Positions 3,501-59,122 of a stretch of 64,000 bases of DNA are shown here, in pieces (positions within the stretch are counted from its first letter, which is position 1; each line of letters starts with the position of its first letter). The stretch is from contig CBDEFO010000006.1 in NCBI GenBank assembly GCA_965237525.1, forward strand, positions 96,001 through 160,000, in the 5' to 3' direction. Position numbers and translations under genes: made by a program. Under the pieces are notes generated by a model that was given only the letters and a program-made list of their open reading frames with translations, was not told the origin of the DNA and ran no database searches. The stretch is from Candidatus Latescibacterota bacterium. Its GTDB lineage: Bacteria > Latescibacterota > CBDEFO01.

Positions 3501-3521
3501 CCCCGATAGACTCAATCGGGG
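3501..3521. repeat. 21-bp palindrome CCCCGATAGACTCAATCGGGG (type copy of a dispersed family)
   Basis: Near-identical or variant copies at ~3200-3221, 5842-5862, 18585-18602, 34579-34600, 35147-35164, 41026-41046, 43259-43279, 45064-45082, 46959-46982 and 58940-58960. Confidence 0.9.
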
Positions 3522-3573
3522 GTAGACAGTAGACAGGCCACCTCACTCCTCCCTGTCTTCTCAAACAGTTATC

Positions 3574-4661
3574 ATGCCGGGCCATTTACGGAACATTCAC
3601 CCTGTGCTGGTGCACTTTCCACTGGCGCTCCTCATGGTAGGATTTCTATTCGACCTTGTGGCCATTTTTTGGCGATCTCAGCCTTGGATCCGCCACACCG
3701 CAACGGGGATGATCACATCGGGAACGCTCTTTCTAGTTCCTACCTATCTGACCGGCCAAAAAGCCGCAGGCGAAGCCACAAGTCCGTTTCCTCAGATGCT
3801 GGAGGTACTGGCCGAGCACGCTGACTAGGCCACTTACACGCTGTGGTTCTTCTGCGTCTATGCTATTCTTCGGCTGGCGCTGGTGGTGTTGGATCAGCTT
3901 ACAGCCGGCAAGTCCGCTGGAAGCCGCCTCCAGATCGCCGCTCTTTTGATAGGCGTCGCGGGAATTTACTTGCTCTACGAAACTGGACAGCGCGGCGGGC
4001 CTCGTCTACGAAATGAGCGTCGGAGTCCGACCCATAATTGAAGTTCCCGAAGGAGTCTTTCACAGGGAGACAGAGAAAGATACTGCAGCAGCACATCTGT
4101 CACTTCGAGTCCGACCGTAACCGGCGATGGGACGCTCCGCTGCAATTTTGAGGCGGATTCGGATGCGGCTTTCGGACAGTACTTCTCGTTTTTGGACGGT
4201 TCGGCTCTCTCCGCGTCAGTGGAAGCACAGAAAACAGTGCTGGGCCTGGAGTCGGACTTGCCGGTGCACGCCTGACCGTTCTGGATTCTGTATTTGGCGA
4301 CGTGCAGATCGATCTGATGCTGAACATAGATGACTTTAAAGGGACAGTCGGACTCGTCCACCACGTGCAGGACGCCCGAAACTGCGACTTTCTAATCACC
4401 CATGGTGACAAAACTATCCTCAGACGGATGCAGGACGGATCGGAGAAGATCTTCAGTCAAAAAAAGCTCCCCGAAAAGGGAGGATGGCGCCGATACCGCG
4501 CCGTCAGCAGCGGTAAGCACTTCAGGGGCTATCAAGATGAAAATCTTGTCGTGCACGGACACGGAGATGCCCCTAAAGCCGGAAGAGTCGTCCTTTTGAT
4601 CGAGGGGACGGGCAATCTCAGATTGGACGAGCTTGAGGTCCATCCTCTGAAAGACCACTAA
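3574..4661 (+). pseudogene. DUF2231 membrane protein with C-terminal soluble domain, inactivated
   Basis: HP.LVHFP DUF2231 motif; in-frame TAG at 3826-3828 followed by continued transmembrane coding (ATYTLWFFCVYAILRL); frameshift near 3998 (GQRGG/LVYEMSVGV); last fragment 4302-4661. Confidence 0.7.
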
Positions 4662-4753
4662 GGCTTTTTCGCTTTACCCCAGAGAAAACCCCCTAAATCA
4701 GGGACTTAAACGGCAGTTCAACAGTCAAATACTCAAGAACGGAGGATATAGAT

Positions 4754-5218
4754 ATGGCAGAATTAAAGATCGGAGATATGGCCCCTGACTTCACTCTCAA
4801 GGGCACAGGAGACACCGAGATAACTCTCAGCGACCATCGCGGGGACAAGAACGTGATGTTAGTATTCTATCCGCTGGATTTCTCCCCTACCTGCTCTGTG
4901 CAGATACCGGACTACAACGAATCTTTAGATAAATTGACAGGGACAGGAACAGCCGTAATCGCCGTAAACAGAGAGTCTCTCTATACGCACGCTGCGTGGA
5001 GCGAACACCTTGGCGGGGTAAAGTTCCCCCTCCTTTCGGATATGGACCTTTCTGTAGCCAAGAAGTACGGCGTGGCAAAGCCGCAGGGATTCACCGAGAG
5101 GGCGTTATTTCTCATAGATAAAGATGGCAAAATCGCCTTCAAGAACGTAGAGGACTCCCCTGCGGACAATACGATCACAGTCAACCAGATCGTCGCAGAG
5201 CTTGAAAAGCTACGCTGA
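4754..5218 (+). CDS. Peroxiredoxin, AhpC/TSA family (AhpE-like, 1-Cys)
   Basis: APDFTL and [10 protein letters not shown] peroxidatic motif, [11 protein letters not shown]. Confidence 0.9.
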
Positions 5219-5400
5219 TAACAAGTGGATTGCAAAGAGTGGACAGCAGACGTGGGAAGGAGGGATATGCCCTGGGAGGGATATGCCCTGTCTGTTGTCT
5301 GTGGGATAGCTTCGCCGACTTCGTGGATTGCTGCCGCCCAAGCAAAGCGACCAAGCCACCTCAGGATGACGATTTTAGGGAGCTTTTATGACACTGCCCT

Positions 5401-5426: not shown

Positions 5427-5975
5427 AATTTACCCGGATTTGATGGCAGATACGTGGGTCTGCCCCTACACATGGAGGACTTCTTTTGACTTTTGCCTTT
5501 GCAAGGACACTTCGTGCTCCGCTACCTCAACCTCACTTTCCCTAACACACCGCCGACGGCGGCTCGCCCAAGATAGTTTCTTATCTGCTATCAAAAATAC
5601 CAGGTAAGTTGGCGGAGTGGATGTTCTGTGCGGCGTCGAACTCATCTTCGTTTGACGCTGCAAACAGGAGCGTTCCGAGGGTCAGATCCAGATTGGTCTT
5701 TAGAGAATAGGTAGCCTGAACTCCGTGAAAGACGCCCCCATCCTGCAGATTGATCACGCCGTACTCCTCCCCTCTCCAAAGGGGCGTAATATCCTTGACA
5801 CGCTGAATCCACTGTAGTCTACCGCAAGATTGGAAACATCGCCCCGATTGAGTCTATCGGGGCTTACAAGCTCCTGCCAGCGGTACTCGTCCTTATCCCG
5901 TTCGCCACTAACGTTGTAGCAGCACTCCAACATAATGCAGAGTCCATCGAAAATGTGTAGTCCCTACCGGTTGAA

Positions 5976-7263
5976 TATCAAATGAAATCGGTGCACCTAA
6001 TTTGATCTTTGTTTAGAGTATTAGTAGATTAAGTTGAGTTGATTGTCTTAACTTTAATCTACGGAGTCCTATGGACAAAGAGAGATTGGCCGTATTAAGA
6101 CAAGAAGTCAACGAGATGTATTTTAAGAAAGAAATGTCAAAGCGAGAAGTTATCAAACAAGCGAGAGTTTCCAATGATTTCGTTACGGCTTGGACTAAAT
6201 CTCCGGATCAGGATTTTGCCATGGATAATCGGGGTTGGCCAAAAGGAAAAAGGCAAAAATTGGCTAAAGTTGACGAACAGAGAATCAAAGAGATTTACCA
6301 TAGCTTAGAGGACGATCCTTATCAGTTCTATTCAGGAGCCACTGTTATTGAACAAGAATGGAGGAATCGATATTCTAGCACCCCTCCTCCGTCGTTGCCG
6401 ACTATCGGCAGAATGCTTTCAGATTTAGGACTTTCCCAGAGAAGGAAGAAAGGTAAAAACAAGGGTGCATCTCGTTATCTTTGTTATCCAGAGTATACCA
6501 TTTACTATCTTTTAGGAGGCAGAGTCCTAGAATCAGACTTTATTGGTAAAAAGTATCTTACCGGCAGAACTGAGCCGGTCAACTTCGTTGGATTTTCCTT
6601 TAAGAAAGAGCCTAAGTTAAGGTATTTTCGGCGGGTTGACGGTCAAACAGCAACTAACTTTATCGAGAAGTGTCAGTCTTTCTTTGACAGGTTTGAAAAA
6701 CCAGATTTCGTTAAGGTGGACAATTGCTCGGCGACTATTGGCAGTGTTTCAGGTGAAAGGAATGTCAGCAAAGCAATGCAGTTTCTCTTGAAAAATCAAG
6801 TGATTCCGATATTTGCCGTTCCCAGAAGGCCCTTTTCTCAAGCATCTATAGAAGGCAACAATTCTGTATTTTCAAGGAAGTTCTGGAACAGAATTCAGTT
6901 CAAAAGCTTACAAGAAGTTGATCAGAAGTTAGAATGGTTTAATCTTTCATCACAGAGATACACCGGCTACCGTCCACCTAAGCAAGAGAAGTCAAACGAG
7001 AAAGATTTCATTCCCAAGACCTATTTTATCAGACAAGTCAAACAGGACACAGAACAGACAGATAAAGCCTTTATCGATGTCCTAAATGAGAAAGTATCTC
7101 TTCCCTCCTCTTACACCAACTACTTTGTCCTGGCTGAATGGAACCTAAAAGAAGAACAATTATACATCCATTTTGAAAAAGAACAGAAACCAAAGATTGT
7201 CGAAAACCTATCATTCAAGATCAATCAAAGATCGAAAGAGAAGTGCACCGATTTCATTTGATA
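5976..7263 (+). mobile_element. Insertion sequence, DDE/integrase-core type (IS481-like; family uncertain)
   Basis: Perfect 21-bp terminal inverted repeats TATCAAATGAAATCGGTGCAC (5976-5996 and 7243-7263); AT-richer than flanks; no clear target duplication. Confidence 0.85.
6071..7261 (+). CDS. Transposase (integrase-core DDE)
   Basis: HTH-like N-terminus; candidate D-D-E residues in ESDF, KVDN and SIEGNN; bounded by inverted repeats. Confidence 0.8.
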   Translation: MDKERLAVLRQEVNEMYFKKEMSKREVIKQARVSNDFVTAWTKSPDQDFAMDNRGWPKGKRQKLAKVDEQRIKEIYHSLEDDPYQFYSGATVIEQEWRNRYSSTPPPSLPTIGRMLSDLGLSQRRKKGKNKGASRYLCYPEYTIYYLLGGRVLESDFIGKKYLTGRTEPVNFVGFSFKKEPKLRYFRRVDGQTATNFIEKCQSFFDRFEKPDFVKVDNCSATIGSVSGERNVSKAMQFLLKNQVIPIFAVPRRPFSQASIEGNNSVFSRKFWNRIQFKSLQEVDQKLEWFNLSSQRYTGYRPPKQEKSNEKDFIPKTYFIRQVKQDTEQTDKAFIDVLNEKVSLPSSYTNYFVLAEWNLKEEQLYIHFEKEQKPKIVENLSFKINQRSKEKCTDFI

Positions 7264-17115: not shown

Positions 17116-17649
17116 ATGAGGGAAAAAGCAGAAAATATATCAGACGCTTTCTGGGTCTTTTTGGCAACGCTTATTTTGGATCAGCTGTCCAAAGTAATCG
17201 TCTCAAAGTATATGAGACCCGGTGATTCGATTAGCGTCATCGGGGACCTTTTCAAACTCACCTACGTCTATAACGAGGGGGCCGCCTTCGGATTGTCCCT
17301 TGGAGGAAATACCGTACACATCGTCTTGTCGGCCTTTGCCATAATCTTCGTATGTTTTCTGATATGGCGCCCCACAACGGATCGAGGCACCACCCAAATA
17401 GCGCTCTCTATGATCCTAGGCGGCGCCTTGGGCAATTTGATAGACAGGATCAGACTCTCAAGAGTTATTGACTTTCTGGATGTAGGCATAAACGATGTAA
17501 GATGGTACATCTTTAATATGGCCGATATGTGGGTCACAGCGGGCGTTATCCTCCTGGCCGCCGTTTACTTTGTAAGGAAGGACGTGGAGGATGGGGAAAA
17601 AAACAGAGCTCCAAGTATCAAAGAACCAGTGCAGAGGGATACGACTTGA
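17116..17649 (+). CDS. lspA: Lipoprotein signal peptidase II
   Basis: DQLSK, N.GAAF, GALGNLIDR, VIDF and FNMAD motifs. Confidence 0.96.
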   Translation: MREKAENISDAFWVFLATLILDQLSKVIVSKYMRPGDSISVIGDLFKLTYVYNEGAAFGLSLGGNTVHIVLSAFAIIFVCFLIWRPTTDRGTTQIALSMILGGALGNLIDRIRLSRVIDFLDVGINDVRWYIFNMADMWVTAGVILLAAVYFVRKDVEDGEKNRAPSIKEPVQRDTT

Positions 17650-18583
17650 CGTATTCCTGTCAGAAAGCGATTTGAGCATTTCCCGCTCCCAAATCAAGAA
17701 ACTGATCAAAGACGGATCTGTTGAGGTAAATAACGCTCAGATCAAAAAGCCCAGCTGGGCTGTACAACCCGAAGACATAATATCAGTTGAGATCCCAGAT
17801 CCCACAGCCTACAATCTGACTCCAGAGGCAATCCCTCTGGATATTTTGTTTGAGGACGAAGACCTCGTAGTAGTCAACAAACCGGCAGGGATGATCACAC
17901 ACCCTGCTTCAGGTTTCTACACCGGCACTCTGGTCAACGCCCTTTTATACCACTGCCGAGACCTGTCAGGCATAAATGGCGTGCTGCGGCCCGGAATCGT
18001 CCACCGGCTGGACAAGGACACATCAGGTCTTTTGATGGTGGCAAAGAACGACCGCGCCCACATCTGCATTTCAGAACAGCTTAAAGAAAGATCCATCACG
18101 AGGAAATACAGGGCATTTGTGTGGGGAAAGATAAGCTCCTATCAGTCAAATAGGATCGAAGCTCCCATAGGTCGTCACAGGAAAGAGCGGACGAGAATGT
18201 CTGTGATGGGGGCAGATTCCTCCAAATACGCAGCCACAAGGTTCCATATCGAAAATGAGTTCGATTTTATTTCCTTAGTCACCGCAGAGCTTGAAACGGG
18301 AAGGACGCATCAAATAAGAGTCCACTTTTCCTTTATAGGTCACCCCATATTTGGAGACCCTCTCTATGGTGGCAGAGAGAAAAAGGTAAAGGGGATCGCC
18401 TCCAAATTTCAACTTGACGCCCGAAGGTTGCTCAAGTTAATGCCTCGTCAAGCCCTCCACGCACAGACTTTAGGATTTGTCCACCCAAGGACAAAGAGGC
18501 AGCTTTCTTTCTCGTCGGATATGCCTGAGGATATGAGGGCACTGCAGAAGACAATAGAGAGCAGCCCCCATAGGTTCAATTAG
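17591..18583 (+). CDS. rluD: RluA-family 23S rRNA pseudouridine synthase
   Basis: S4 domain, NKPAG, GIVHRLDKDTSG, TGRTHQIRVH and QALHA. Confidence 0.93.
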   Translation: MGKKTELQVSKNQCRGIRLDVFLSESDLSISRSQIKKLIKDGSVEVNNAQIKKPSWAVQPEDIISVEIPDPTAYNLTPEAIPLDILFEDEDLVVVNKPAGMITHPASGFYTGTLVNALLYHCRDLSGINGVLRPGIVHRLDKDTSGLLMVAKNDRAHICISEQLKERSITRKYRAFVWGKISSYQSNRIEAPIGRHRKERTRMSVMGADSSKYAATRFHIENEFDFISLVTAELETGRTHQIRVHFSFIGHPIFGDPLYGGREKKVKGIASKFQLDARRLLKLMPRQALHAQTLGFVHPRTKRQLSFSSDMPEDMRALQKTIESSPHRFN

Positions 18584-18874
18584 AGATAGACTCAATCGGA
18601 GGTGGACAGGGCAGCACCTCCCATAGCCGAATGTAGGGCTGCGTTATCCATCCCCTACATCTTGTTACCCTGTCAGTTAAGTGTTTTCCCTGCTGTTTCG
18701 TGTTGTTCCCTAACTCTTTATTTATTTAGGCTAACAACCCTTCATCTTTTATGGTGTTTCTTGGCTTTTCACGGTGTTTTTGCTTGTTCCAGTAGAAAAA
18801 CAGTAGAAGTTTGTTAGAAAAGTAAAGGTAAAATTTCCCAGGACTATTCAGTGATCTCAGAAGTGTTGGTTGGG

Positions 18875-30993: not shown

Positions 30994-32739
30994 ATGTTTT
31001 GCCTTGCGGCCATTTTGCCTCATGCTGGTTGTGGGGCAAAGTCTGCGGCAGAGGGAGAAACCGAGATGCTCAAGATCACCGTCGGCGAGCCGACGTTACT
31101 GGATCCACTTGCGTATTTTAATTCCGCGAGCGTGGCTGTCTCCCGGACCGGGGTCGTAGCGGCTTTCTATCCATGGGCGCAGCGTCACAGAACGTCCACG
31201 GACGGCGGGGTCACCTGGGGGCCGGAGATGGATTCTCCTCCCCAGCTGGGCGGCGGCAGCAGCAGCGGAACCCTGCGCGATGGAGGCGTGATCAAGTATC
31301 TGACCACGGGTGACGAAACCATAGGCGAAGCGGAGGAACACGTAAGCCTGATGGTGGGAGAATATAAAGAAGGCTGGTTCATGCTGCACTCGACGTTTGC
31401 CTGGTTCAGCGACGACTTTACGCAATATGAAGTCGCCCCGGTTCAGGTCTACATGCCCGACGCCGTCACCACCAAGCAGATCCATCTGGCCATGTCCTCC
31501 TGGCCGATCTTCGAGAGGGGCAATATTCTCCATCTGGACAATGGCGATCTGCTAGCGCCCATGTACGGTGTGTTCAAAGGCGACACCAAGAGTCGTGTGG
31601 TGCTTTCGGTCTCCAGCGATCGCGGCCACAAGTGGCGTTACTACGCGACGGTTGCGACCGGAGCGAGGGACCCGAACCCTGAGCTGCCGGGACAATACCT
31701 CGGCTACGGCGAGCCGAGCATCGAGCTGCTGCCTAACGGACAGATGATCTGTGTCATGCGCACGCAGTACTCGCACCTGCCCGGCGAATACCGGCCGATG
31801 TCCGTGTCGTGGTCAAATGATCGCGGCAGGACCTGGACCAGGCCGATACCCACCAAGCCGCACCTGATGAACATCGCTCCGAAGCTGATCGTTCTGGAGA
31901 ACGGCGTCGTCGCCCTCGAGTATGGCCGGCCGGGCTTCCATGTCGCTTTCAGTATCGACAACGGGCATACCTGGCAGGACCGCGTCAGCTTGTCCCATCT
32001 GCCGGAACCCATGATTACCGGCCAGTTTGACATGGCAAAAGCTGGCCCGAACAAGCTGGTGGCCATCGGCAGCGATGGCGAGGGTACGAAGGTGTGGCCA
32101 ATTAAGGTGGAGCGTGTGAAAGTATCACCAGCTCACGGGAGCTTAGACGGCCGTGTGTTGGATCAACAGGGCAATCCAATTGTCGGCGCAAAGGTCGAGC
32201 GCAGCCCTAACCGCTACACGGCCGACGATTGGCTGGAAGACCCCACCACATTAGATCCCTGGGGGCACGGAAGTCCCCTGACGGTCGGCTCACCAAAATT
32301 GGGGTACAGATCGATCCGTAATGGAAATGGACACCCGACGGTGCAGACGGATGCCTAGGGACGCTTCCGATTCGACTCGGTAAAGCTTGGTGAATATGTA
32401 CTGACCGTAGAAGCTGACAGTTACGCTCCCCAGCATCGTCATATCAAGATTCAGCCAAGGCCGCAAAAGCAGCAGTTCCGTTTGAAGGCTGGTCGAAAAG
32501 TTTGTCATCGAGTTGTGGATAACCGAGGCCGGCCGGTTCCAGGCGCATGTGTCGTGCTGAACAGATGGCACGTCCATACCGATCTTGCTGGTTTCTTCCA
32601 CTGGTCAGTGGAGGTCCCGCTGCCAGAGCAGGTGGAGATCAGCGTTTACAAGCGCTATAGCGGTCAATATGAGAAACTCAACGCAACAGTGCCGTTCTCA
32701 GAGCTGGAGCGCCAGCCAATCATCCTGCGACCCAGGTAG
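30994..32739 (+). pseudogene. BNR/Asp-box protein with carboxypeptidase-regulatory-like domains; signal peptide split by IS1182, in-frame TAG
   Basis: Removing the IS restores MEWHCLSVISIMFCLAAIL from ATG 29438; after TAG 32356-32358 the frame continues GRFRFDSVKLGEYVLTVEAD... Confidence 0.8.
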
Positions 32740-33121: not shown

Positions 33122-34401
33122 TGACGTGAACCCCAAAGACTGGACAGATGCCTTAGCAAGTTCTATAATTACTGATGTAAAGGTTTAAAAAGAGTCCAGA
33201 AAGGGGTTGTCATGTCATCTAAACGCCGTATCTTCACTCATGAGTTCAAGCTTGAGTGTGTATTGGATGTGTTAAGTTGTCGTAAGAGTCCTGCTCAGAT
33301 CTGTCGGGAGCGCGACTTGAGTGAGTCGTTGTTGACCCGGTGGCGGCAGCAATTTGTTGATCGAGCTCCCAAGATATTTGAGATCAACTCCCAACAAGCC
33401 AGTGTCGAGGCGCAACGCATTAGAGAGTTAGAGCGTCTTGTAGGGTGTTTGACCCTGGAGTTAGAAGCCTCAAAAAAACTCTCCGGCTACTTCGCCTTTC
33501 GGTAGCCCAGAAGAAGGAGTTGGTCCGTCAAGTGGAGAATGAGTTTGACATCGGTTTATTGTGTAACGTAATAGGTTTGGCACGTAGCAGCTTTTATTAT
33601 ACTTGTGAGGTTTCAGATGACCAGGGACTGAGAAAGGCGATTGAGGGCGTCTGTTTACACCATTGTCGTTACGGGTATCGGAGGGTGACCCCGATGCTCC
33701 ACAGGGGACAATACCGGGTGAACCATAAAAGGGTTCTACGGTTGATGAAACAGATGGGCTTGTTGGTACAGCCCAGACGGCGCAAGGTGCTAGCGACCGA
33801 AGGCAAGGCCCACGAGCCTCCTTTCCCCAATCTGTTGAAGGGTCTTAAGATCAAACGTCCTGACCAGGTATGGTGTGCGGACATCACCTACATTTTCTTG
33901 GCGAACGGTTCTATGCTTTATCTTGCTCTGGTTTTGGATATCTTTACCCGTATGATACGGGGTTGGGCTTTGAGTCGTAGTTTGTCTGGGGCCTTGACGC
34001 AAGAAGCGCTTTTCAAAACATTCGAGAGAGGACACCGGCCACAGATACACCATTCGGATCGAGGGTCTCAATACACTGCGCATAGCTATTGTCAAGGGCT
34101 TTGGGAAGTAGGTGCCGAGATAAGCATGGCATCCAAAGGAAAAGCTTGGGAGAATCCGTTTGTGGAAAGCGCGATTGGTCACCTGAAGGATGAGGAGGTA
34201 TGGCAGCAAGAATACGTGGATCTTGAGGATGCCTTGGTGCATTTGAGTCACTTTCTGGATGTGGTTTACAATCACCAGCGTATCCACTCAGCACTGGGTT
34301 ATCTGACGCCTGGAGAATTCAAGGCACAGTATGAAGCACAAGATTGCAAAAAACTTGCTTAACCCGTCCGTTTTCGTGCTCAGAAAAATGGGTTCACGTC
34401 A
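33122..34401 (+). mobile_element. IS3-family insertion sequence
   Basis: TG...CA ends with inverted repeat TGACGTGAACCC / GGGTTCACGTCA; no target duplication seen. Confidence 0.92.
33212..34362 (+). CDS. IS3 transposase OrfA (33212-33505) and OrfB, joined by a -1 programmed frameshift
   Basis: OrfA HTH; A7 run at 33472-33478; OrfB YGYRR, W..DITY, HHSDRGSQY, EN..VES and HSALGYLTP. Confidence 0.92.
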
Positions 34402-34655
34402 CCTTCCACTGAAGGCTGAATTAACCTAACTTTTCCGTTCACCAGCAAATCGTCTACAAATTGGAGAAAGGTGTCATACATTTTGCGTCGCAGAAGGGCG
34501 ACGCCTATCGAGTATAAAGCAAACTCAGAAAGATAGGCGCTATCCAAAGGAATAATGCGCAAGAACTGCTCTGCCTGATCCCGATAGATTCAATCGGGGA
34601 CTCTATCCTGTTTCAATAGAAGTTCCAGGGAGATACTGCTATCAATCAAATACAC
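34402..34655 (-). pseudogene. PIN/VapC toxin, interrupted by a palindrome-derived TGA and truncated by IS3
   Basis: Manual translation MYLIDSSISLELLLKQDRVPD*IYRDQAEQFL...SEFALYSIG; start overlaps the antitoxin stop. Confidence 0.75.
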
Positions 34656-34881
34656 TTTCTTCCCACCATTTTAATATTTTATGCTGAAGCTCCACCGATG
34701 TGTATTGATCCTTCATATCCTCTAAAGCCCCCTTCCAGTTGAGCTTTAACTGACTCTTACCTTTGGGCTTTTTTCGCACATGTTTCCGTATCAGGAATTC
34801 TACAAAGTCCACTACCTCTTGCCGAAGTTCAGGAGGCAGTTCTTTGACCTTTTCCTTAATTGTTTCCTCAATGGTTGACAT
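34642..34881 (-). CDS. DUF2281 antitoxin
   Basis: LPPELRQEV.DFVEFL...W.GAL......TSVELQH....W. Confidence 0.85.
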   Translation of the reverse strand: MSTIEETIKEKVKELPPELRQEVVDFVEFLIRKHVRKKPKGKSQLKLNWKGALEDMKDQYTSVELQHKILKWWEESVFD

Positions 34882-34929: not shown

Positions 34930-35709
34930 TTATACCTGCCTCAGGCTGATCTTTCCGTCCTGTAGAATACCGTAGGTAAAGTGCCTTATCCAGTCACCTA
35001 AGATGACCAAAGTTCCGCATTCTAAGTCTTCCACCAAGGGGATATGAAGGTGCCCGAATACTACTACATCAAAGCCCTCTTGAAGTCTGTCTTCTGCCGC
35101 TTGGACATAGATGTCCTTGAAGTCGTTCCAGCCTCCCATTGAACCCCCCCCGATTAAATCGGGGCTTAGATCGGGCGTCGGGGGGCGTGAGTCTCTGCTG
35201 GTTTTTGACACAAGCTTGGCCACCAGGTTCCCGAGATCGGGATGGAGCACTCTAAAGAGTCGGATGCAGGTGGGATTCTTGAGTATCCATTTTACGATCC
35301 TGTCTCCCCTACTCCCGGAGAGACCGTCCCCATGAGCGATGTGAATCTTCAAGCTGTGATGGCACACATCTACAGGATCGGGGCTAAACTCAATCCCTAT
35401 TTCATCAGATAAGAACGAACCCACGGTGCTGGCGTCACCCCAAAGATCGTGATTCCCCGCTATATACACGACCCTTGTTCCAGATTCGATCAGCCTTTCA
35501 AGCTCAAAGAGGACCTTAAGTCCCCTTTTGGGCACGACGGTCTTGTACTCAAACCAAAAGTCAAAGAGGTCCCCCACTATGTAGAGAACCTCGGCTTTCC
35601 CCTTTAAGCCCCGTATAAAGGAAATGAGCTTTTCCTGCTTGATGACTTCGGTCTTCTCCTCCTCGAGGCCTATGTGAGCATCGGATAAGAAATATATGTC
35701 GCCTGACAT
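34930..35709 (-). CDS. lpxH: UDP-2,3-diacylglucosamine diphosphatase
   Basis: SDAH, GDLFDFW, GNHD, HGD, GHLH and LGDW metallophosphoesterase motifs. Confidence 0.85.
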   Translation of the reverse strand: MSGDIYFLSDAHIGLEEEKTEVIKQEKLISFIRGLKGKAEVLYIVGDLFDFWFEYKTVVPKRGLKVLFELERLIESGTRVVYIAGNHDLWGDASTVGSFLSDEIGIEFSPDPVDVCHHSLKIHIAHGDGLSGSRGDRIVKWILKNPTCIRLFRVLHPDLGNLVAKLVSKTSRDSRPPTPDLSPDLIGGGSMGGWNDFKDIYVQAAEDRLQEGFDVVVFGHLHIPLVEDLECGTLVILGDWIRHFTYGILQDGKISLRQV

Positions 35710-39379: not shown

Positions 39380-39405
39380 AAGCATAACTTATGATTACAG
39401 AGTCT

Positions 39406-39484
39406 GCATTAACCTGCCACAGCAGGCATTAACCTGCCACAGCAGGCATTAACCTGCCACAGCAGGCATTAACCTGCACAGCAG
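39406..39484. repeat. Tandem repeat, 4 x 20 bp GCATTAACCTGCCACAGCAG (last copy 19 bp)
   Basis: Read directly from the sequence; single diverged copy at ~40220-40250. Confidence 0.95.
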
Positions 39485-39715
39485 GCATAAACTTGCTAAA
39501 GTAGGCCGTCTTCTTCCTTATGTGCCTCCTGGGCGTCTCGTCATTAGGAGTCAAACCCTGAAATTTCCAAGCGCGTTGGCCTTTCCAATGTCCTTCTCGT
39601 AATCGTCTCAACAGTACCGCGGTATCAATCTGTCTCACAACTATCGTGCCTTTGGTTCTGTGTCCAGGACGTACGTGAGCAGGGGGCCTCTCGGCGGAAG
39701 TGTCAGGGCGCTCGG

Positions 39716-40144: not shown

Positions 40145-40440
40145 TGCTGTCCTCCCTGTTTGCCGCTGCAACCTGTTACCCTTGAACGGCCCCCCCCACG
40201 ATCTACGATTATACAGTCTGCATTACGCTGCCACAGCAGGCTTAACCTGCCAAAGTTGACTTTTTCTGCTGTCTAAACCTGATGAGCTTCTCGCCGTTAA
40301 GGAGTCTAATGCCTTGAATTTCCATATTCCATCGTCTGGCGCAATCTCAGCGCGCTTGGGTTTATGCAGTCTGTATAAGCCGATTCATAGCCCGTAGCTG
40401 TAGCCTGAACCCGCCGTTTTACCTCTTCATCCCCTGAAAA

Positions 40441-40932: not shown

Positions 40933-41070
40933 TCCCCTCTCTTTAAGGGCGAGTTTACCTCGCCTCTACGTTATTTTCAGGGCAGACACACTGGTCTGCC
41001 TTTCCCTGCCTTCGGTCAAATGTATCCCCGAGTGAACCTATCGGGGACTTTCGGGCGCCTGTCCCCTCAC

Positions 41071-43111: not shown

Positions 43112-43429
43112 ACAGAAAAAGGCCCGGAAAGACAGCGCGTCTGCCCCCACAGATACGACGTTCTGTGTAGGGGCGAAATCCGCTCGCCCTTTGAGCGCAC
43201 CCACCGTGTTGCCAAGGAGACGGGAGCGCCGTCTCCTATCGCGTCTCCCCCATTGAACCCCCGATAGATTCAATCGGGGGTCGGGGATTACTTCGGGGAA
43301 TTATCCGGCATAATGAGGAAGGAGCAAAGTGAAACACTGGTCTTGCGAGCCTTTAGCCCAGAGCGAAGCGAAGGGTCTGCGAAGCAATCTGGCTGTGTGC
43401 TATCTACTGTTCAAAGAGAGGAGAGTCAA

Positions 43430-44337: not shown

Positions 44338-44482
44338 ATAGATACACAGGTGAGATTGCCTCGGGGTTTCAGCCCTTGCTACGACGTTGGTTGGTTTTGC
44401 CTCAGTCATTGCTATCCCCGACTGAACATATCGAGGATAGCCAAGTGATCTCGTCACCAGGGACGCCGCCACCCCAGCCTAC

Positions 44483-47400
44483 CTACTTTCTACTGTTCAC
44501 TACTCTCGTATTGTATTGATAGATATAGGAAAGGTGCTCTTCGTCGTAAGGGTAGCTTTCAGCCTCAGGATATGGATAACTGCTCATACTGTGAAACGGC
44601 AGCGGCTCTACTGTGAGGGAATAGGGGGAGTTGTTGTCCATATCCTTCCCGAACCCGTCCGCGAAGAAGAAGAAGTCCCGCACGGTGCCATCGTCTAAGG
44701 GTGGAAGATGGGATGCATCGAAGTTAAGCGTGATCTCGTCGCCGTGGAACAATATGACATACTGGTCATCAATCGCCGTCAAAAGGGGAAGGCAATCCCC
44801 ATACCTGGTGTATCGGCCCGTGTGATCCATCCAGGGGGCAGAACCCGTAATCTTTGAATAGTCATAGACCTTGGGCATTCGTCCGTCGGGGGAGTAGTAG
44901 CTGGCGTAGCCCTTCCAGTGGAGATCAGACACTACGGGAGAGAGCCTCGTCACCTTTGTGGGTATCGGATCGTCTATTATATCGAATAGGATCTGATCCC
45001 AGTAGATGGGCATTGAGGTGGTAATCCTTATCTTATAGTCGGTCCCCGACCCCCGACCTATCTCCGACAGACTCAATCGGGGATCCTCTATGATCTCTAC
45101 CACCATCTCCTTCGGCTCTCCTGCCGGATAGCCCATATCCTCAGATATAGTCTTCCACCTTCCGTCTGCTCCCATTATCTCCAGCCGAGGAGGCAGAAGA
45201 ACTATTCCAGCCTGTGCCGCAGCCAGATTGGATGTCGAATGCGAATACTCCGCGTAACCGTACAGGACGAGAATGACCTTGCCAGTAGCTCTACTGCCCA
45301 CTGTTTGCAGTTCGAGGATAATACTGTGCTCTTTTGCGTATCCGTGGAACTGGGGAGGTAAAAGTTCAAAGTTCGAGGGGTATTTCCTGTCTCTGTGCCT
45401 GATGTAGGGGAGGATGTCGTTTCCATCTTGATCGTAAGCCTTGAAGGGCACGCGGGGATCGGAAAGGACGTGGACTTTGAATCCGGGATACGGAGGTGAC
45501 GAGAGAAGCCTCTCGTTGGGATAGACCTCTGTCCCTTGCGGATGGTCAACTGCCAGAAGTTCCACTTTGTCCAGATAGATGACCTCCTCCAAATGATTGG
45601 CAAACTGGATGGAATATTCTCCTCTTTCTACATTCCGTCCCCCGTCCCCTGTCCCCCGTCCACGAGATTGCTTCGCCTGGCTCGCAATGACAGTCGATAG
45701 GGTTCGCGATGACAGTTCGGTTGTCTTTTCCTTTTGGTCATTGCGAGGGGCAAAACCCCAAAGCAATCTCTCCTGTCCACTGTCTGCTCGCCTGGGTTTG
45801 AATATTTCCCCCGGGATCTTGATATACTCGTCCGTGTCGGGGTAGTAGTACTCCCCCGGGGAGATGAGGTACGATATTATGGCTCCTCCAAGGATGTCCG
45901 TTATGTACTGATACTCAGCACCGTTCCAGACGTAGACGATAGGACACGATGTGCCCTTCCTGTCCAATTCCTCTAACAAGAGGAGCGAGTCGGGTGCCGG
46001 ATCCAGTTCGGTTTGTCTGACTCCACCCGGCCAGAGGATCCTTACAAAGTCTATTTTCTTTCTACTCCCGATGCCGAAGTGGACTGTACGACCGTTCCGA
46101 TCCCCTCTGAGTTCAAGCTTTTGCGACAGCTCCCCCGCTTTTATCTCCACCTTTGCGCCTATGCCGTCTTTGTTGCTGTTCAGGCCTTTCAAATGAACTT
46201 TGAGATAGCCGTTTTTCTCCCCACCCTCGTTGCGAAGGAGGAGTGCACCCGCCTTTGTAGTATCTGCATAGGAGACTAATAGGTCTATATCCCCGTCGTT
46301 GTCAAAATCGGCCGATGCTATCTGATAGCTGACCGCGGGCGCTATATTATCAGAGAGGGGGACAGGGTCGGCAAAGCCACAATCGCGGGATGTCTTCCTG
46401 GATCCCCATTGGTTCTTAAAGAGCCGCGCACCCTGCGACGAGAGGGACACTATGTCCAGATCGCCATCGTTGTCCACATCCAGAAGCTTATAAGCCGATC
46501 CAGGTTCCGCGTCTGCAGAAAGCGTGTGTGAGACCGGGTCGAGGACAAAGAGCCTTTTGCTCTCTTGACTGCGCCTATAGAGACTTGCACCCTTTTCTAA
46601 AGTGAAAAGGAGGTCTATGTATCCGTCCTTGTCATAGTCCCCTGCTGATATGCCGAGTATTTTCCTTACTTCGGAAAGTTCTGACTCTTTGGCAACGTCT
46701 GTGAAGGTCCCCCCTCTGTCGTTGCTGTAGAGGTTTACGGATCTATCGTAGGAGGCCACACAAAAGTCCACATCTCTGTCGTTGTCGTAATCCAAGAAGA
46801 CGCAGTCTGTGCTCCACTTTCCTCCCGGCACTTTAGCCTCATCGGTCACATCGGTAAATCTCCCGTTAGCGTTGTTCCTGTAGAGTACATTTTTCCCGTT
46901 TGCATTGACGACGTAGATGTCCAGGTCGCCGTCGTGGTCGTAGTCAGCAAAGACAGGTCCCCGATTAGGTCGTGGGTCGGGGATCAGGGCATCGCTCCCC
47001 TGCAGCCTACGTAAATTGGCGCTTTGTGTGACATCTTCAAATTGTCCGTCTCCGTCATTCTTGTACAGGATAACTGCACCGCTACTGACCACAAGCAGAT
47101 CCTGGTCTTCATCGTTATCGTAGTCCCCGAAGATGCCCTTTGAGATGGACTCGGTGTCCTTCAGTCCGGCCTCTTCTGTCACATCTTCAAATTGCCCGTC
47201 CGCTTTGTTTCTGTAGAGTCTCCCGAAGATGAAGATGTCCAAAGCCCCGTCGTTATCGTAGTCTCCGAATGAGCCTCTAATTCCAGTAGCCAGGACATCC
47301 TCCCCCTTTCTTCTGGGCGAGGTTAGCTCGACCCCACTTTCCTGCCCACTTATATATGTGACATCTGTGAATCTGATCTCTACAGACGAATCCTCTAGCT

Positions 47401-48145
47401 CTTCAGATACTGTCTCTGTCCGACTTACGGCTTCTGCATATCTGCCCTGCTCTAAATATCCCAATCCCACCGAAGTTGCTATCCCCATCTTTCGGAGACC
47501 TGTGAATATCTCCATCTCCCTTTTGAAGTCTTCCGTTTTATTTAAGCGTCTGAATTCCATGGCCAGGTTGTAGTGAGCGGATGAATTGTTGGGATCCAGT
47601 GAAGTTACCTTTTCAAGCTCCTCCACAGCCCTTTCAATCTCTCCAAGCCTTGAAAGGCAAATACCCAGATTGTAGTGCGCAAAAGGATCAAATGGATCGT
47701 GTTTGACAACCTTTTTGAAGTTGCCGGCGGCAGCTTGATAGTCTCCGTGTGCTTTGTAAATAAGGCCGATCACATAGTAGATGTTCGGATGGTCGGGAGA
47801 TAGCAGGAGCGCCTTTTCAAGTTCTAAGAGCGCCTGATCGTACTTGCCCATATTAAACTTTGCTATGCCGAGATTTATCTGCGCATCTGCATATTTGGGG
47901 GCGATAGAGAGGGATTTGGCGAATTCGGAGGCGGCATCGGAGTAGCTGTACTGCTCAAGATATGCGATGCCGAAGTTATTGTGGCGGTAAGCCTCCTCGG
48001 GGAAGCGTTGAACCTGTTGTTCTGTGGATACTTTGGGGGATTCTTGTTCTGCCTTTTTTTCTACGTCACCGCATTTTATGAATCCAAACAGTAAAAGGAA
48101 TGACAATGTGAATAGGATATAGTATCTGTTCATGTATCCTCCCAT
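44483..48145 (-). CDS. TPR + FG-GAP + ASPIC/UnbV (CRTAC1-like) secreted protein or lipoprotein
   Basis: Signal with Cys; TPR repeats; D.DNDGD.D repeats; SNKDGIGAKV...HFGIG...WPGG and SCP; C-terminal DGFGKDMD...PLPFH.MS.YP. Confidence 0.9.
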   Translation of the reverse strand: MGGYMNRYYILFTLSFLLLFGFIKCGDVEKKAEQESPKVSTEQQVQRFPEEAYRHNNFGIAYLEQYSYSDAASEFAKSLSIAPKYADAQINLGIAKFNMGKYDQALLELEKALLLSPDHPNIYYVIGLIYKAHGDYQAAAGNFKKVVKHDPFDPFAHYNLGICLSRLGEIERAVEELEKVTSLDPNNSSAHYNLAMEFRRLNKTEDFKREMEIFTGLRKMGIATSVGLGYLEQGRYAEAVSRTETVSEELEDSSVEIRFTDVTYISGQESGVELTSPRRKGEDVLATGIRGSFGDYDNDGALDIFIFGRLYRNKADGQFEDVTEEAGLKDTESISKGIFGDYDNDEDQDLLVVSSGAVILYKNDGDGQFEDVTQSANLRRLQGSDALIPDPRPNRGPVFADYDHDGDLDIYVVNANGKNVLYRNNANGRFTDVTDEAKVPGGKWSTDCVFLDYDNDRDVDFCVASYDRSVNLYSNDRGGTFTDVAKESELSEVRKILGISAGDYDKDGYIDLLFTLEKGASLYRRSQESKRLFVLDPVSHTLSADAEPGSAYKLLDVDNDGDLDIVSLSSQGARLFKNQWGSRKTSRDCGFADPVPLSDNIAPAVSYQIASADFDNDGDIDLLVSYADTTKAGALLLRNEGGEKNGYLKVHLKGLNSNKDGIGAKVEIKAGELSQKLELRGDRNGRTVHFGIGSRKKIDFVRILWPGGVRQTELDPAPDSLLLLEELDRKGTSCPIVYVWNGAEYQYITDILGGAIISYLISPGEYYYPDTDEYIKIPGEIFKPRRADSGQERLLWGFAPRNDQKEKTTELSSRTLSTVIASQAKQSRGRGTGDGGRNVERGEYSIQFANHLEEVIYLDKVELLAVDHPQGTEVYPNERLLSSPPYPGFKVHVLSDPRVPFKAYDQDGNDILPYIRHRDRKYPSNFELLPPQFHGYAKEHSIILELQTVGSRATGKVILVLYGYAEYSHSTSNLAAAQAGIVLLPPRLEIMGADGRWKTISEDMGYPAGEPKEMVVEIIEDPRLSLSEIGRGSGTDYKIRITTSMPIYWDQILFDIIDDPIPTKVTRLSPVVSDLHWKGYASYYSPDGRMPKVYDYSKITGSAPWMDHTGRYTRYGDCLPLLTAIDDQYVILFHGDEITLNFDASHLPPLDDGTVRDFFFFADGFGKDMDNNSPYSLTVEPLPFHSMSSYPYPEAESYPYDEEHLSYIYQYNTRVVNSRK
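45665..45770. repeat. Pair of GAGATTGC...GCAATGAC / GTCATTGC...GCAATCTC palindromes lying inside a CDS
   Basis: Intergenic relatives at ~10067-10101, 11490-11547, 11569-11632, 43340-43390, 44352-44385 and 44405-44451. Confidence 0.85.
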
Positions 48146-54529: not shown

Positions 54530-54614
54530 TGGATAGTGGGTAGGGCAGTCTGCCTATCCCTTCAGATATGTAGGGGCGAACACATGGGTTCGCCCAGCAG
54601 GAAGTAGATAGGGC

Positions 54615-55568
54615 ATGAAAATAGAGGAAAAGGCATACGCAAAGTTAAACTTGGGTGTCAAGATCAAAGGAAAACGCAAGGACGGCTATCACGACATAGC
54701 CTCGGTCCTTCAGACCATAGACCTATGCGATCTTTTGATCTTAGAAGAGATCCCCTCCGGGGAAATAGAGATAGTCTGCTCCGATCCGAGACTTCCGACC
54801 GATTCCCAGAATCTTGTCCATAAGGCGCTCTCCAGTCTCAAAGATGCCCTGAAGATAAGAAGGGGCGTCTCGGTAACGATACAAAAGAACATTCCGAAGA
54901 CCGCGGGACTCGGGGGAGGAAGTTCAGATGCCGCTGCCGCTCTAAGAGCTGCCAACAGGCTCTGGGCTTTGGGCCTCGATTACGAGGGACTCTTCCAATT
55001 AGCGTCTGGTGTGGGCTCAGATGTGCCCTTTTTCCTGCAGCCCGGGACAGCCATCGCATCGGGAAGGGGTCAGATCCTGAACTATATCTCCTGGAGCGAC
55101 GACGCCTTCTACGTCCTGGTCTACCCTGGGATCCAGATTTCGACCGCCTGGGCGTACCAAGAGATAGATCGAAAGAAAATTGCCACGGAGTCAACGTTTG
55201 ACTTGACAAAAGATACAAAATATGTTAGCTTTTTAGATTCTATGCTTGCTAATAAGTACGGCACAAGGTGTTTGTACGAACACCTTGAAAACGACTTTGA
55301 AGACGTAGTCTACCAGACCTATCCCGAAATCTTTAAGATAAAGGAAGAGCTGACCTCCTGCGGGGCATTAAGTGCCTCCCTTTCGGGGAGCGGCTCGACC
55401 GTGTATGGGATATTTGGATCACAAGATGATGCCCAAAGAGCCGAAGATCGGCTGAAAGCGGATACTTTCTGGTCGAAAAGTTGCTCGGTCGTCCAATGGC
55501 AGGACTACGGCCTTTGGAGCCGTCTATCGAGGTTCGAATCCTCGCCGAGCAGCCACATTATTAAGTAG
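54615..55568 (+). CDS. ispE: 4-diphosphocytidyl-2-C-methyl-D-erythritol kinase
   Basis: AKLNL, DGYH, GLGGGSSDAA, GSDVPFF, NDFE and LSGSGSTV. Confidence 0.95.
   Translation: MKIEEKAYAKLNLGVKIKGKRKDGYHDIASVLQTIDLCDLLILEEIPSGEIEIVCSDPRLPTDSQNLVHKALSSLKDALKIRRGVSVTIQKNIPKTAGLGGGSSDAAAALRAANRLWALGLDYEGLFQLASGVGSDVPFFLQPGTAIASGRGQILNYISWSDDAFYVLVYPGIQISTAWAYQEIDRKKIATESTFDLTKDTKYVSFLDSMLANKYGTRCLYEHLENDFEDVVYQTYPEIFKIKEELTSCGALSASLSGSGSTVYGIFGSQDDAQRAEDRLKADTFWSKSCSVVQWQDYGLWSRLSRFESSPSSHIIK
55203..55231 (+). promoter_or_regulatory. Promoter inside ispE, probably for tRNA-Gln/rplY
   Basis: TTGACA-17-TAGCTT in an AT-rich patch. Confidence 0.5.
55482..55555 (+). tRNA. tRNA-Gln(TTG)
   Basis: Acceptor stem TGCTCGG/CCGAGCA, D stem GTCC/GGAC, anticodon stem ACGGC/GCCGT with TTG at 55514-55516, GTTCGAATC T-loop, encoded CCA. 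Confidence 0.97.
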
Positions 55569-55595
55569 ACAGCTGGAGATGGGAGAGGAGAGGAT

Positions 55596-56267: not shown

Positions 56268-56268
56268 A

Positions 56269-56829
56269 TTGCATGTGGTCGTCGGGATGGGCAACCCGGG
56301 TAAGGAGTACGAAAATAACCGCCACAATTTGGGATTTAAAGTAGTAGACCTGCTGTCAGAGAATCTCAAGTGCCACTGGAGAACTGGCAGAGGGGAGTTT
56401 TTGATAGCACGGGGAAAGTTAGAAAGTTTCTCTTTTATTCTTGTCAAACCTCTCACCTTAATGAACAGAGGGGGAGTCGCCGTAAAAGAGTTAGTGTGGG
56501 ATTTGGACCTCGAATTAGACCGCCTTTTAGTAATCCTCGACGACCTTAATCTCCCCTTGGGCAAGATAAGACATCGGGCAAAAGGCAGCGACGGAGGACA
56601 CAGAGGGCTCTCCTCTGTGATCGAAAAGCTGCAATCGCAGGATTTCCCGCGCCTCAGGTTGGGCATAGGCGCTTCGCCCGACGGTATGGACACAGCCGAA
56701 TACGTCTTGAGCGATTTTCGTGACGACGAAGCCGACATAGTAGAAGCTATGATAAGAAGGTCCGCAGAAGCTGTAAAATGCTTCATCAAATGCGGCATCG
56801 AAGAAGCCATAAGCAGGTTTAACGGTTAG
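56269..56829 (+). CDS. pth: Peptidyl-tRNA hydrolase
   Basis: GMGNPG..Y...RHN.GF, KP.T.MN and RLRLGIG. Confidence 0.95.
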   Translation: MHVVVGMGNPGKEYENNRHNLGFKVVDLLSENLKCHWRTGRGEFLIARGKLESFSFILVKPLTLMNRGGVAVKELVWDLDLELDRLLVILDDLNLPLGKIRHRAKGSDGGHRGLSSVIEKLQSQDFPRLRLGIGASPDGMDTAEYVLSDFRDDEADIVEAMIRRSAEAVKCFIKCGIEEAISRFNG

Positions 56830-56941
56830 TAGACAGTCAACAGGGGCTTTTTTGTCCTCACAGGGCAGACACACGTGTTCGCCCGATTTAAGGGAAGAGA
56901 GGGACGGTCGCTCCCCTGTCTACTTGTAGAGTGGAGGGAAA

Positions 56942-58909
56942 ATGGCAATCACGGACTGGGCTCCGATATTAGGTGTTGCGGGGTTAATATTAGCTGGTTT
57001 GATCTATTGGTACATTAAAAGACAGCCGTCGGGCACAGACCTAATGGTGGAGATTTCAGACTTGATCCACACAGGCGCTATGGTGTTTCTAAAAAAGGAG
57101 TACCAGATACTATCTATATTCATAGTTATTGTATTTGCGCTTCTCTTTAAGTTTATAAATGAATTCACAGCGTTAGCCTTTATATGCGGGGCACTCTGTT
57201 CGATTTTAGCCGGGTTCTTCGGGATGAAGGCCGCCACAAGAGCAAACGTAAGGACCACCCAAGCGGCAAATCAAGAAGGGGAGTCCAAGGCGCTCCTTGT
57301 GGCGTTTGCGGGCGGATCTGTTATGGGACTTTCGGTGGCAAGCCTGGGGCTTATCGGGATAGGCATCTTCTTTATGCTATTTAAGGACACGGACCCATCG
57401 GTTATCACAGGCTTTGCTATGGGTGCAAGCTCGATTGCCCTCTTTGCAAGGGTCGGTGGAGGGATATACACTAAAAGTGCGGATATAGGTGCAGACCTGG
57501 TAGGAAAGCTGGAAGCCGGAATCCCAGAGGACGATCCCAGAAACCCCGGAGTCATAGCCGACAACGTGGGCGACTGCGTGGGGGATACCGCCGGAATGGG
57601 AGCCGACATATTCGAATCTTACGTGGGGTCGGTAATCGCCACTATCGTCATAGGGGCGACGATGAGCCCAGGGCTTGAGCATATGTCGTTCCCTATAATC
57701 GTGATTATGATCGGCCTTGTGGCATCTGGCATCGGGATACTATCTATAAAGGTCTTCGACAAGTTAAATCCCGCCTCGGTCTTAAGATATTCAACTTACA
57801 CAAGTGCCGTTTTGCTTTTGATAGCCGCCTATTACGTAATAAAGAGAATAGACGCCCTCGATATAAACGTCTATTGGGCCCTCCTTTCGGGATGTCTTGC
57901 GGGAGTCCTGATAGGATGGTTTACGGAGTACTATACATCTGGGAAACCCATAATAAGGATCGCTGAATCTTCCGAAAGCGGAGCTGCAACCAATATGATA
58001 ACTGGACTTGCGGTGGCTATGGAGAGCACCGTGCTCCCGGTACTGACTCTCTGCGCGGCGATATACGTGGCCTACAGATATGCAGGTCTCTACGGGATAG
58101 GGATATCTGCTGTGGGGATGCTCTCTACCGTGGGGATAACTATGTCTGTGGACGCTTACGGGCCGATAGCTGACAACGCCGGGGGCATAACCGAACAGGC
58201 GGGTCTGGGAGAGGATACGAGGAAGATCACCGACAGTCTCGACTCTTTAGGGAACACCACAGCCGCAATGGGAAAGGGCTTTGCGATAGGATCTGCGGCG
58301 CTGACTGCGCTTGCGCTCTTTTCCGCCTATACCAAAGCGGTGGATCTGACACAGATCAACATAGCCGACGCAGATGTGGTGATCGGCCTTTTTATCGGGG
58401 GCGTCATTCCCTTTCTGATCGCTGCACTGACAATGACCTCTGTGGGCAAGGCGGCCGATTTGATGGTCCAGGAGATCAGGAGACAGTTTCGAGAGATCCC
58501 CGGACTTATGGAGGGGAGCGCCAAACCCGACTCGGCAAGATGCGTGGCGATAAGCACCACCGCCGCTCTAAGGGAGATGATAGTCCCGGGAATAATCGCC
58601 GTGCTTTCGCCCGTTGTCGTAGGTTGGCTTTTAGGTCCTGAGTCCTTAGGCGGGATGCTTGCAGGTGCTACATTATCAGGCGTCCTTTTAGCGCTTATGA
58701 TGGCAAACGGAGGAGGCGCATGGGACAACGCAAAAAAATACATCGAAGAGGGAAATTTAGGGGGTAAAGGATCAGAGGCGCACAAAGCCGCTGTAGTCGG
58801 CGATACTGTCGGAGACCCATTCAAAGATACCTCAGGCCCCTCGATGAATATCCTAATCAAGCTTATGTCGGTGGTGTCGCTGGTGTTGGCGCCGCTCTTT
58901 ATCAAGTAG
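56942..58909 (+). CDS. hppA: Membrane pyrophosphatase (K+-dependent type, likely Na+-translocating)
   Basis: [26 protein letters not shown] and [16 protein letters not shown] has Ala at the K+-dependence position. Confidence 0.93.
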
Positions 58910-59122
58910 ATAGAATACAGACGTAGAGGCGAGGCCTGTCCCCGAATGACTCTATCGGGGATCTCTTGCTCCCAGCACTGGGTAATCCAGCCCCTACACT
59001 CATCTGTTGTAGGGGTAGACCCCTGTGTGTGCCCATGCCGTGCCCTGTCTACTGTCTACAAAACTCATTTCCCCTGGTTCTGAAGCATACATCAGAGCCC
59101 AATGTCCACAGGAGGATAAATA

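Follow-up and report, generated by a model that had tools for sequence, protein, structure and literature searches.

How does a palindrome of barely two dozen nucleotides come to lie in frame inside several proteins of one bacterium, and what moves it? The question is raised by a 64,000-nucleotide stretch of DNA from a Candidatus Latescibacterota bacterium (hereafter the window), in which an earlier note, made from the sequence alone, had described about ten copies of a 21-bp palindrome and had taken them for a mobile mini-element. On balance, we favor the explanation that this palindrome is a non-autonomous selfish hairpin, cut down from a repeat of the CGTC/SRM type and spread through nicking by an Ssn-type nuclease. 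The parts of this explanation differ in strength. That the hairpin is a mobile element filtered by reading frame is very probable, and its ancestry from the tagged CGTC/SRM repeat that flanks ssn genes is likely, judging from sequence resemblance. The least secure part is the mobilizer, which we tentatively infer to be an Ssn-type GIY-YIG enzyme.

Distribution, structure and polymorphism of the hairpin

Close copies, defined by at most three mismatches to the 21-mer, occupy seven sites in the window (3501, 5842, 34579, 41026, 43259, 45062 and 58940), and 100 dinucleotide shuffles of the window yielded no match at this threshold. Allowing up to five mismatches for decayed copies adds sites 18565, 18581, 35144 and 44416, and site 46959 is a decayed 17-nt sister hairpin; with seven close and about five decayed copies, "about ten" was a fair count. 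The genome-wide motif scan proposed in the earlier note recovered 561 close copies in the genome of the window (G000; 4.58 Mb, 96.6% complete), compared with none in two local shuffles, and copy number is similar in a sister genome of the same genus (G001). According to a purpose-made hexamer gene caller, 455 of the G000 copies are intergenic, 84 lie inside open reading frames (ORFs; 15% of copies) and 22 extend over gene ends. About 452 copies would be expected inside genes from the coding fraction, which indicates that genes have been avoided or purged about five-fold. Intergenic copies are commonly nested, with 293 of the 455 located within 35 bp of another repeat or a partial self copy, as opposed to 268 of 2792 random intergenic positions; 60 of the 84 coding copies are not nested.

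The conserved unit proved to be 23 nt long, and not the 21 bp or exactly seven codons claimed earlier, because the bases flanking the 21-nt core pair with each other beyond the shuffled level. In 96% of copies a C or T precedes the core, in 96% an A or G follows it, and these two bases form a Watson-Crick pair in 275 of 364 flank-unique copies versus 174±8 after shuffling, so that the unit can be written Y-CCCCGATAGAYTCAATCGGGG-R, its outer pair co-varying. Intact copies have a stem of 7-9 bp, a 7-nt loop and folding z-scores of about -2.5 to -3.6. Of the 561 copies, 45 have a four-base CARG-type tail at the right end and 23 at the left. Exact 4-bp direct repeats surround the unit in 20 of the 364 copies (null 3.2±1.9; none at 5 bp). 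The same holds for 7 of the 51 foreign loci that remained after dereplication of 141 matches (null 0.9±0.9). The 17-nt sister hairpin, which has a 5-nt loop and is found at 35144 and 46959, has 26 copies within one mismatch in G000 and often hosts nested insertions.

Comparison of the sister species reveals many filled and empty sites. The comparison covered 2.8 of the 4.54 Mb of G001, at about 95% DNA identity, and the polymorphism counts are therefore lower bounds. Orthologous flanks were found in G001 for 297 of the 561 G000 copies, 70 of which are empty in G001, and in G000 for 293 of the 371 G001 copies, 62 of which are empty in G000. This amounts to 132 filled/empty pairs, while about three quarters of comparable sites are common to both species. 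Strains differ as well, since contigs assembled from public runs lack two of the window copies: a complete 40 bp around 3500..3522 is missing from G001 and from one strain contig (run X2, which skips 3481-3522), and another contig (run X4) is without 26 bp at 41022, where the copy 41025..41047 lies. Together with the gaps seen against distant homologues (below), these sites bear out the claim of a mobile mini-element that adds peptides to proteins.

The commonest net gains at intergenic sites are 19 bp (17 sites), 20 bp (7), 27 bp (6) and 18 bp (4), a 21-bp gain being seen once, and those at coding sites are 27 bp (5), 18 bp (4), 21 bp (2), 33 bp (2) and once each 15, 63, 19 and 25 bp. A gain of exactly 21 bp occurs at only 3 of the 84 polymorphic sites with gains of 10-70 bp. 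A fixed 21-bp insertion was accordingly rejected, as net gains are mostly 19 or 27 bp. Junction fitting separated two modes. In the short mode (net +18 to +22, mostly +19) the core replaces 0-8 target bases, CG being the commonest loss. In the tailed mode (net +25 to +28, mostly +27) about six extra bases are gained with usually 0-1 target bases lost, and a 4-base CARG or TTGA tail often duplicates the target. This tail seems to be partly derived from the donor, since it differs from the target at 4 of the 11 sites with 27-bp gains. A pure rule of 4-bp target duplication was likewise rejected as the general case, given its occurrence in 20 of 364 copies and the loss of target bases in most short gains. 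Within genes, the direction of change is securely insertion, because distant homologues do not have the additional residues.

The hairpin is not confined to the lineage of the window, as had been supposed. A one-mismatch scan of 39 other genomes of the phylum detected no copies, and among 168 phylum genomes scanned at two mismatches, 10 others hold 1-3 matches and 156 hold none. Among the matches listed, exact copies occur in records labelled Deltaproteobacteria and Thermodesulfobacteriota and on one 3.5-kb Nanoarchaeia contig (L051), which may be a binning error. Exact copies are also found in 16 of 41 genomes around a deltaproteobacterial carrier and in at least 120 metagenome stretches. Viral contigs contain no exact 21-mer; a looser pattern matched seven viral loci, none adjoining a GIY-YIG frame in a motif scan. 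The same 21-mer and outer-pair rule recur in unrelated phyla, yet 166 other genomes of the phylum are nearly devoid of the hairpin, and this pattern suggests that the agent is transferable and sequence-specific.

Reading frame and host proteins

Gains of 10-70 bp are divisible by three at 15 of 17 coding sites but at only 21 of 67 intergenic sites (Fisher p = 4e-5), which points to selection, not design. The two coding exceptions, retained in the count, are a 19-bp gain at the end of a MoaD-family gene and a 25-bp gain in a weakly supported ORF. In-frame gains measure 15, 18, 21, 27, 33 or 63 bp, and the element itself adds about 5-15 residues to a protein. The earlier note had attributed in-frame insertion to the seven-codon core; this does not hold, as the commonest gain, 19 bp, shifts the frame and genes are strongly depleted of copies. 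Its observation that four of the six frames are open is correct, and these are the sole frames seen in predicted genes (29, 23, 16 and 16 of 84), because stop codons force this outcome. Four different peptides are thus read from the hairpin.

We scanned 38 of 40 host genes in G001, 13 of which had no NCBIfam match at 1e-10. The identified hosts include SecA, a DinG helicase, an MsbA-like transporter, LeuD, ProA, LpxD, PheS, MeaB and RmlD, and alignment with solved structures opens gaps of 6 (PheS), 14 (LpxD) and 7 (RmlD) residues opposite the inserts. Host genes are under purifying selection, with a pN/pS of 0.30 (24 of 40 hosts with an orthologue) relative to 0.23 for controls (109 of 150), and the elements diverge like their flanks (16/378 and 58/1332, respectively). 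We conclude that selection for frame operates after a copy has landed and that the length of seven codons is incidental.

The host proteins in the window, aligned with their homologues as the earlier note had advised, contain residues that most homologues lack, which defines the empty sites; the peptides PRLSLS and PDRLNRG, the LpxH variant, the variant at 46959 and the stop frame PD* were all found where they had been reported. The insert in the LpxH-like protein reads PDLSPDLIGG and adds about 15 residues (66, compared with 51 in 66 of 119 homologues). LpxH models match this gene (34930-35709) below cut-off, and its homologues are named UDP-2,3-diacylglucosamine hydrolase. In the AlphaFold model (mean pLDDT 86.6) the insert forms a predicted loop that joins helix 157-173 to helix 192-210, confidence being lowest at 185-188. 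In the ASPIC/UnbV protein, the copy at 45044..45083 adds 10 residues (50 between anchors, compared with 40 in 106 of 116 homologues) and the hairpin at 46959, read as IPDPRPNRG, adds 8 (43, compared with 35 in 85 of 116); the 116 homologues include one near relative that carries both inserts. Since the inserts drift like their flanks and the one that was modelled lies in a low-confidence loop, the description of an element that "reshapes proteins" appears overstated.

One copy is found in a broken gene. The copy at 34579 introduces six extra codons, stop included, relative to a 134-aa PF01850 homologue; neither Pfam nor NCBIfam matched the gene itself, and its PIN label rests on homologues. 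A strain contig (run X4) retains this hairpin and has one extra base at 34403, near the point where the frame departs from that of the homologues, consistent with the stop of the hairpin being the first lesion of the gene.

Ancestry and means of spread

Deltaproteobacterial loci contain the same core carrying a TGTCAT tag and having AT as its outer pair; this is the layout of CGTC REPs (PMC3733652) and of the SRM/NTS repeats that Ssn nucleases cut (PMC11893778). This tagged form has 24 copies in one genome (G075), and 5 of 81 genomes have any; loop variants in G000 grade toward its loop. In G075, two close copies of the tagged hairpin, three mismatches from the core, flank an ssn-like gene on both sides (L361), and in another genome (G064) an SRM five mismatches from the core flanks an intact ssn (L367). 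It is because the tagged, near-identical form flanks Ssn-type GIY-YIG genes in Deltaproteobacteria that we regard SRM ancestry as likely. Ssn is reported to cut single-stranded DNA adjoining such hairpins, and its authors raised a role in repeat expansion (PMC11893778); CGTC-type repeats lack a dedicated transposase (PMC3733652). G000 itself has one intact ssn-like gene (C4:479839-480123), between canonical SRMs, and 184 GTCATTGCGAG SRM starts.

In the mechanism that we propose, Ssn-type GIY-YIG enzymes, coming and going between genomes, would start the copying. A single-strand nuclease of this kind, reading the hairpin, would introduce a nick where DNA is exposed, commonly at a repeat already in place. 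From the end set free, a donor hairpin would be copied with the help of 1-4 bases of microhomology, and rejoining would drop a few target bases or carry in the 4-base tail. Landing would be blind to frame, so that frameshifting or stop-frame events in genes would be purged or left as pseudogenes, while a few frame-keeping events would persist as near-neutral loops. Junction variability, nesting and SRM ancestry all agree with templated copying initiated by a nick; which enzyme acts, by what chemistry, and how the hairpin passes between phyla are matters of inference.

Several observations weigh against this mechanism. The ssn-like gene closest to the hairpin, at L361, is frameshifted, and a hairpin within five mismatches occurs at only 2 of 31 small-GIY-YIG loci, 29 of which carry other repeats. 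In G000 the ssn gene is flanked by a different SRM, nine mismatches from the hairpin, and there is a single fully tagged copy. No small GIY-YIG gene was detected by tblastn over 62% of the G001 chromosome, despite lineage-specific copies in that genome, and a motif scan detected no small GIY-YIG frame near the metagenome copies. Cleavage by SsnA is described as depending on bases upstream of the palindrome (PMC11893778), and most copies do not have these bases; the available portions of the same paper contain no demonstration that Ssn inserts DNA. Leading- and lagging-strand copies are balanced (224 vs 218 and 142 vs 150). Polarity at intergenic sites is not proven, as TCGA empty sites could be scars of hairpin deletion, and many nested copies may have spread by conversion among host repeats. 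The origin of the gene calls in a purpose-made caller is a further caveat.

An unlikely alternative is that the hairpin represents the joined ends of a small autonomous element, either a tiny GIY-YIG unit or a DDE insertion sequence (IS), which makes a 4-base staggered cut and leaves something like a minimal MITE. The excess of exact 4-bp direct repeats would follow naturally, and at one locus (L386; G047:C83:860-1560) a tiny GIY-YIG gene has look-alike arms with 1-2 mismatches per 10-base arm and 4-base spacers; two gene-less 30-nt versions lie beside this gene. The 139-copy IS of G000, followed by YTAR-like 4-mers, could also be cited in its favor. Against this, the direct repeats are restricted to a small minority of copies, the extra four bases mismatch the target at some 27-bp sites, and the commonest outcome is a loss of target bases. 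No pairs of half-sites were found in G000, in 2.8 Mb of G001 or in 96 genomes of the deltaproteobacterial class (the last at 255-285 bp spacing only), a GIY-YIG frame accompanies none of 20 viral matches, and the sole fully resolved end of the 139-copy IS is unlike the hairpin.

A somewhat poorer candidate is enzyme-free spread, in which existing repeats seed gene conversion and template switching during replication or repair. It would account for the nesting of 64% of intergenic copies in other repeats or partial self copies, for the variable junctions with 0-8 bases lost, and for the finding of neither a PF01797 nor a small GIY-YIG gene in G001. It fits poorly with the many insertions into unique coding sequence without flanking homology, to which the 60 non-nested coding copies attest, and with the same 21-mer and outer-pair rule recurring across phyla.

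The earlier note had looked to a RAYT or other HUH nuclease. That a RAYT/IS200-IS605 HUH transposase, since lost or acting in trans, mobilizes the hairpin as a classical REP we consider improbable. Its short imperfect shape without a fixed duplication speaks for this view, as do the 1-13 PF01797 matches of deltaproteobacterial carriers. Neither G000 nor G001 has any PF01797 match; this absence is weak evidence, because G000 has 282 GTAG-type REP starts (GTAGGGGC) although no PF01797 gene resides there. None of 10 Y1 loci fetched from other carriers holds the hairpin within five mismatches, the constant GTAG tag is missing, target bases are often replaced, replication-strand bias is absent, and CGTC-type repeats are reported not to flank tyrosine transposases (PMC3733652). 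DUF559 matched twice in G000, both times within long frames, and not in G001.

A signal selected by the host (a terminator, a protein-binding site or a useful peptide) is very improbable: the intact copies do fold well and most comparable sites are shared by both species, but T-rich tails follow only 5 of 561 copies with no T-tract signature, gene-orientation context matches the background, four different peptides are encoded, divergence is as fast as in the flanks, and one copy breaks a gene.

Returning to the selfish hairpin, it belongs outside the Rickettsia palindromic elements (RPE), the CGTC REPs as defined, the GTAG/RAYT REPs and the MITEs, while resembling each. With the CGTC REP/SRM repeats (NTS, dRS3) it shares the form of a short GC-rich hairpin, a copy number in the hundreds, a chiefly extragenic placement with some intragenic copies, and the absence of an adjoining transposase. 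CGTC REPs are defined by an 8-9 bp stem starting with AT, a 4-5 nt loop and a CCA tail (PMC3733652). In contrast, almost all G000 copies lack the CGTC/TGTC tag, the AT outer pairs and the CCA tail, having instead a stem of 7-9 bp with a Y-R outer pair, a 7-nt loop and no constant tail, and they are mostly single rather than head-to-head dimers. The share of copies in genes is 15%, against 2% for NTS in N. meningitidis (PMC11893778), and filled/empty alleles with two junction modes are not reported in the available portions of PMC3733652 and PMC11893778.

The analogy with Rickettsia elements drawn in the earlier note is apt as regards behavior, as those palindromes are also fused in frame into conserved proteins and apparently tolerated (PMC2229807, PMC3733652). 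It fails in size and host restriction: RPE-1 is 105-146 bp long and Rickettsia-specific (PMC2229807), whereas the present hairpin has 23-27 nt and is letter-identical in unrelated phyla. Since RPE-4 and RPE-6 are CGTC REPs (PMC3733652), kinship with RPE runs through the CGTC superfamily. GTAG REPs and REPINs are similar in size, hairpin shape and nesting into mosaic clusters (PMC3733652) but differ in the constant GTAG tag, in the PF01797 genes missing from both genus genomes and in the Y1 loci, none of which is flanked by the hairpin; GTAGA follows 28 of 561 copies, which fits heptamer-repeat contexts. MITEs (Correia/NEMIS, ERIC, RUP, YPAL) are likewise non-autonomous, with filled/empty sites and occasional in-frame fusion, and YPAL shows variable duplications near dyad symmetry (PMC2229807). 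MITEs span 70-300 bp and have a spacer between their terminal repeats (PMC3733652); the hairpin is four to eight times shorter, GC-rich and without a spacer between its arms, has a duplication in a minority of copies, often loses target bases and does not resemble the one fully resolved IS end compared.

Intragenic insertion by RPE or CGTC REPs is already in print (PMC3733652, PMC2229807), and ever since the Rickettsia elements were described it has been clear that palindromes can occur in frame in proteins, while the movement of CGTC-type repeats is still an open question in the literature (PMC3733652, PMC11893778). Outside the supplements of PMC3733652 and PMC11893778, whose lists of repeat families could hold a related one, we found neither the hairpin nor protein insertions of tag-less SRM cores described in the open literature. 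The 132 filled/empty pairs of two near-complete genomes, the two junction signatures and the tagged parent beside ssn genes make the question of the mobilizer testable with short oligonucleotides and one 95-residue enzyme. A broader and rather speculative proposal, which we hold with less confidence than the Ssn assignment itself, is that Ssn nucleases are the missing mobilizers of the CGTC/RPE superfamily, and that a transposase-free nick-and-copy process moves a bare 23-base hairpin between phyla, adding loops to essential proteins (SecA, PheS and lipid A enzymes). If Ssn is indeed the mobilizer, such a hairpin would be about the smallest mobile DNA unit possible. The hairpin also provides a natural, genome-wide gauge of where essential proteins tolerate insertions of 5-15 residues, and annotators should be aware that recurring PIDSIG or PDRFNRG peptides in uncultured bacteria are DNA parasites rather than protein motifs.

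Copies and neighboring features in the window

Positions, strands and settings of the copies and of their host genes are collected in the table.

Table. Hairpin copies and host genes in the window; the last column gives occurrence in the sister genome G001 or the source of the gene name.
Positions	Strand	Feature	Comparison or source
3500..3522	+	Intergenic 23-nt unit within GTAGACAG heptamer repeats, accompanied by a partial second left arm	
5841..5863	-	Copy translated as PDRLNRG in gene fragment 5581-5933	Common to G001
18564..18602	+	Two decayed nested copies forming the final residues and stop codon of pseudouridine synthase gene 17591-18583	Common to G001
34383..34655	-	Broken PIN-domain gene, downstream of DUF2281 gene (34642-34881)	Homologues carry PIN PF01850
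34578..34600	+	Copy in stop frame (PD*) within the broken PIN-domain gene	
34930..35709	-	Host gene, LpxH-like UDP-2,3-diacylglucosamine hydrolase; open frame, catalytic columns retained	
35135..35185	+	Nested 17-nt sister hairpins within lpxH	12 bp shorter in G001
41025..41047	-	Intergenic copy immediately downstream of ssb	
43258..43280	+	Perfect copy, intergenic, accompanied by partial nested arms	Common to G001
44415..44437	-	Decayed intergenic copy, 4 mismatches	Common to G001
44483..48133	-	Host gene with open frame, encoding a 1216-aa TPR / FG-GAP / ASPIC-UnbV protein with three or more inserts derived from repeats	Pfam
45044..45083	+	Copy and partial arms in the ASPIC/UnbV gene; minus strand reads EDPRLSLSEIGRGSG	
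46958..46985	+	Decayed 17-nt sister hairpin in FG-GAP repeat of the ASPIC/UnbV gene	
58935..58961	-	Tailed 27-nt form (unit + CAGG), intergenic between H+-pyrophosphatase gene and rpsF	Common to G001

The gene fragment at 5581-5933, whose part 5754-5933 contains the PDRLNRG peptide, had been called a barrel pseudogene. The peptide is indeed there, in a fragmentary gene, but the barrel is a weak lead: Pfam and NCBIfam searches gave no match for the fragments, and the nearest named ESM clusters of the counterpart in the sister species are porins (0.93); the fragment is possibly the end of an outer-membrane barrel. Adjoining it just upstream is an IS481-like transposase (6071-7261, below cut-off); G000 contains 56 near-identical frames, and the compared part of G001 contains none.

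A third insert in the ASPIC/UnbV protein (45600-45830) comprises about 55 residues and contains two SRM-type repeats and short direct repeats; the insert carried there by a near relative (P0001) is a different one and shorter. Elsewhere in the window, positions 29568-30920 encode a 451-aa transposase-like protein, presumably IS1182/IS5-like, whose element occurs about 139 times in G000 as opposed to three tblastn matches in 2.8 Mb of G001, and which therefore represents a very recent IS burst. The ORF at 30994-32355 has no NCBIfam match, and the sole Rfam match in the window is a tRNA gene (55482-55552). An intergenic tandem 20-bp repeat of about five units (39398-39506 and 40204-40241) holds another small GC hairpin.

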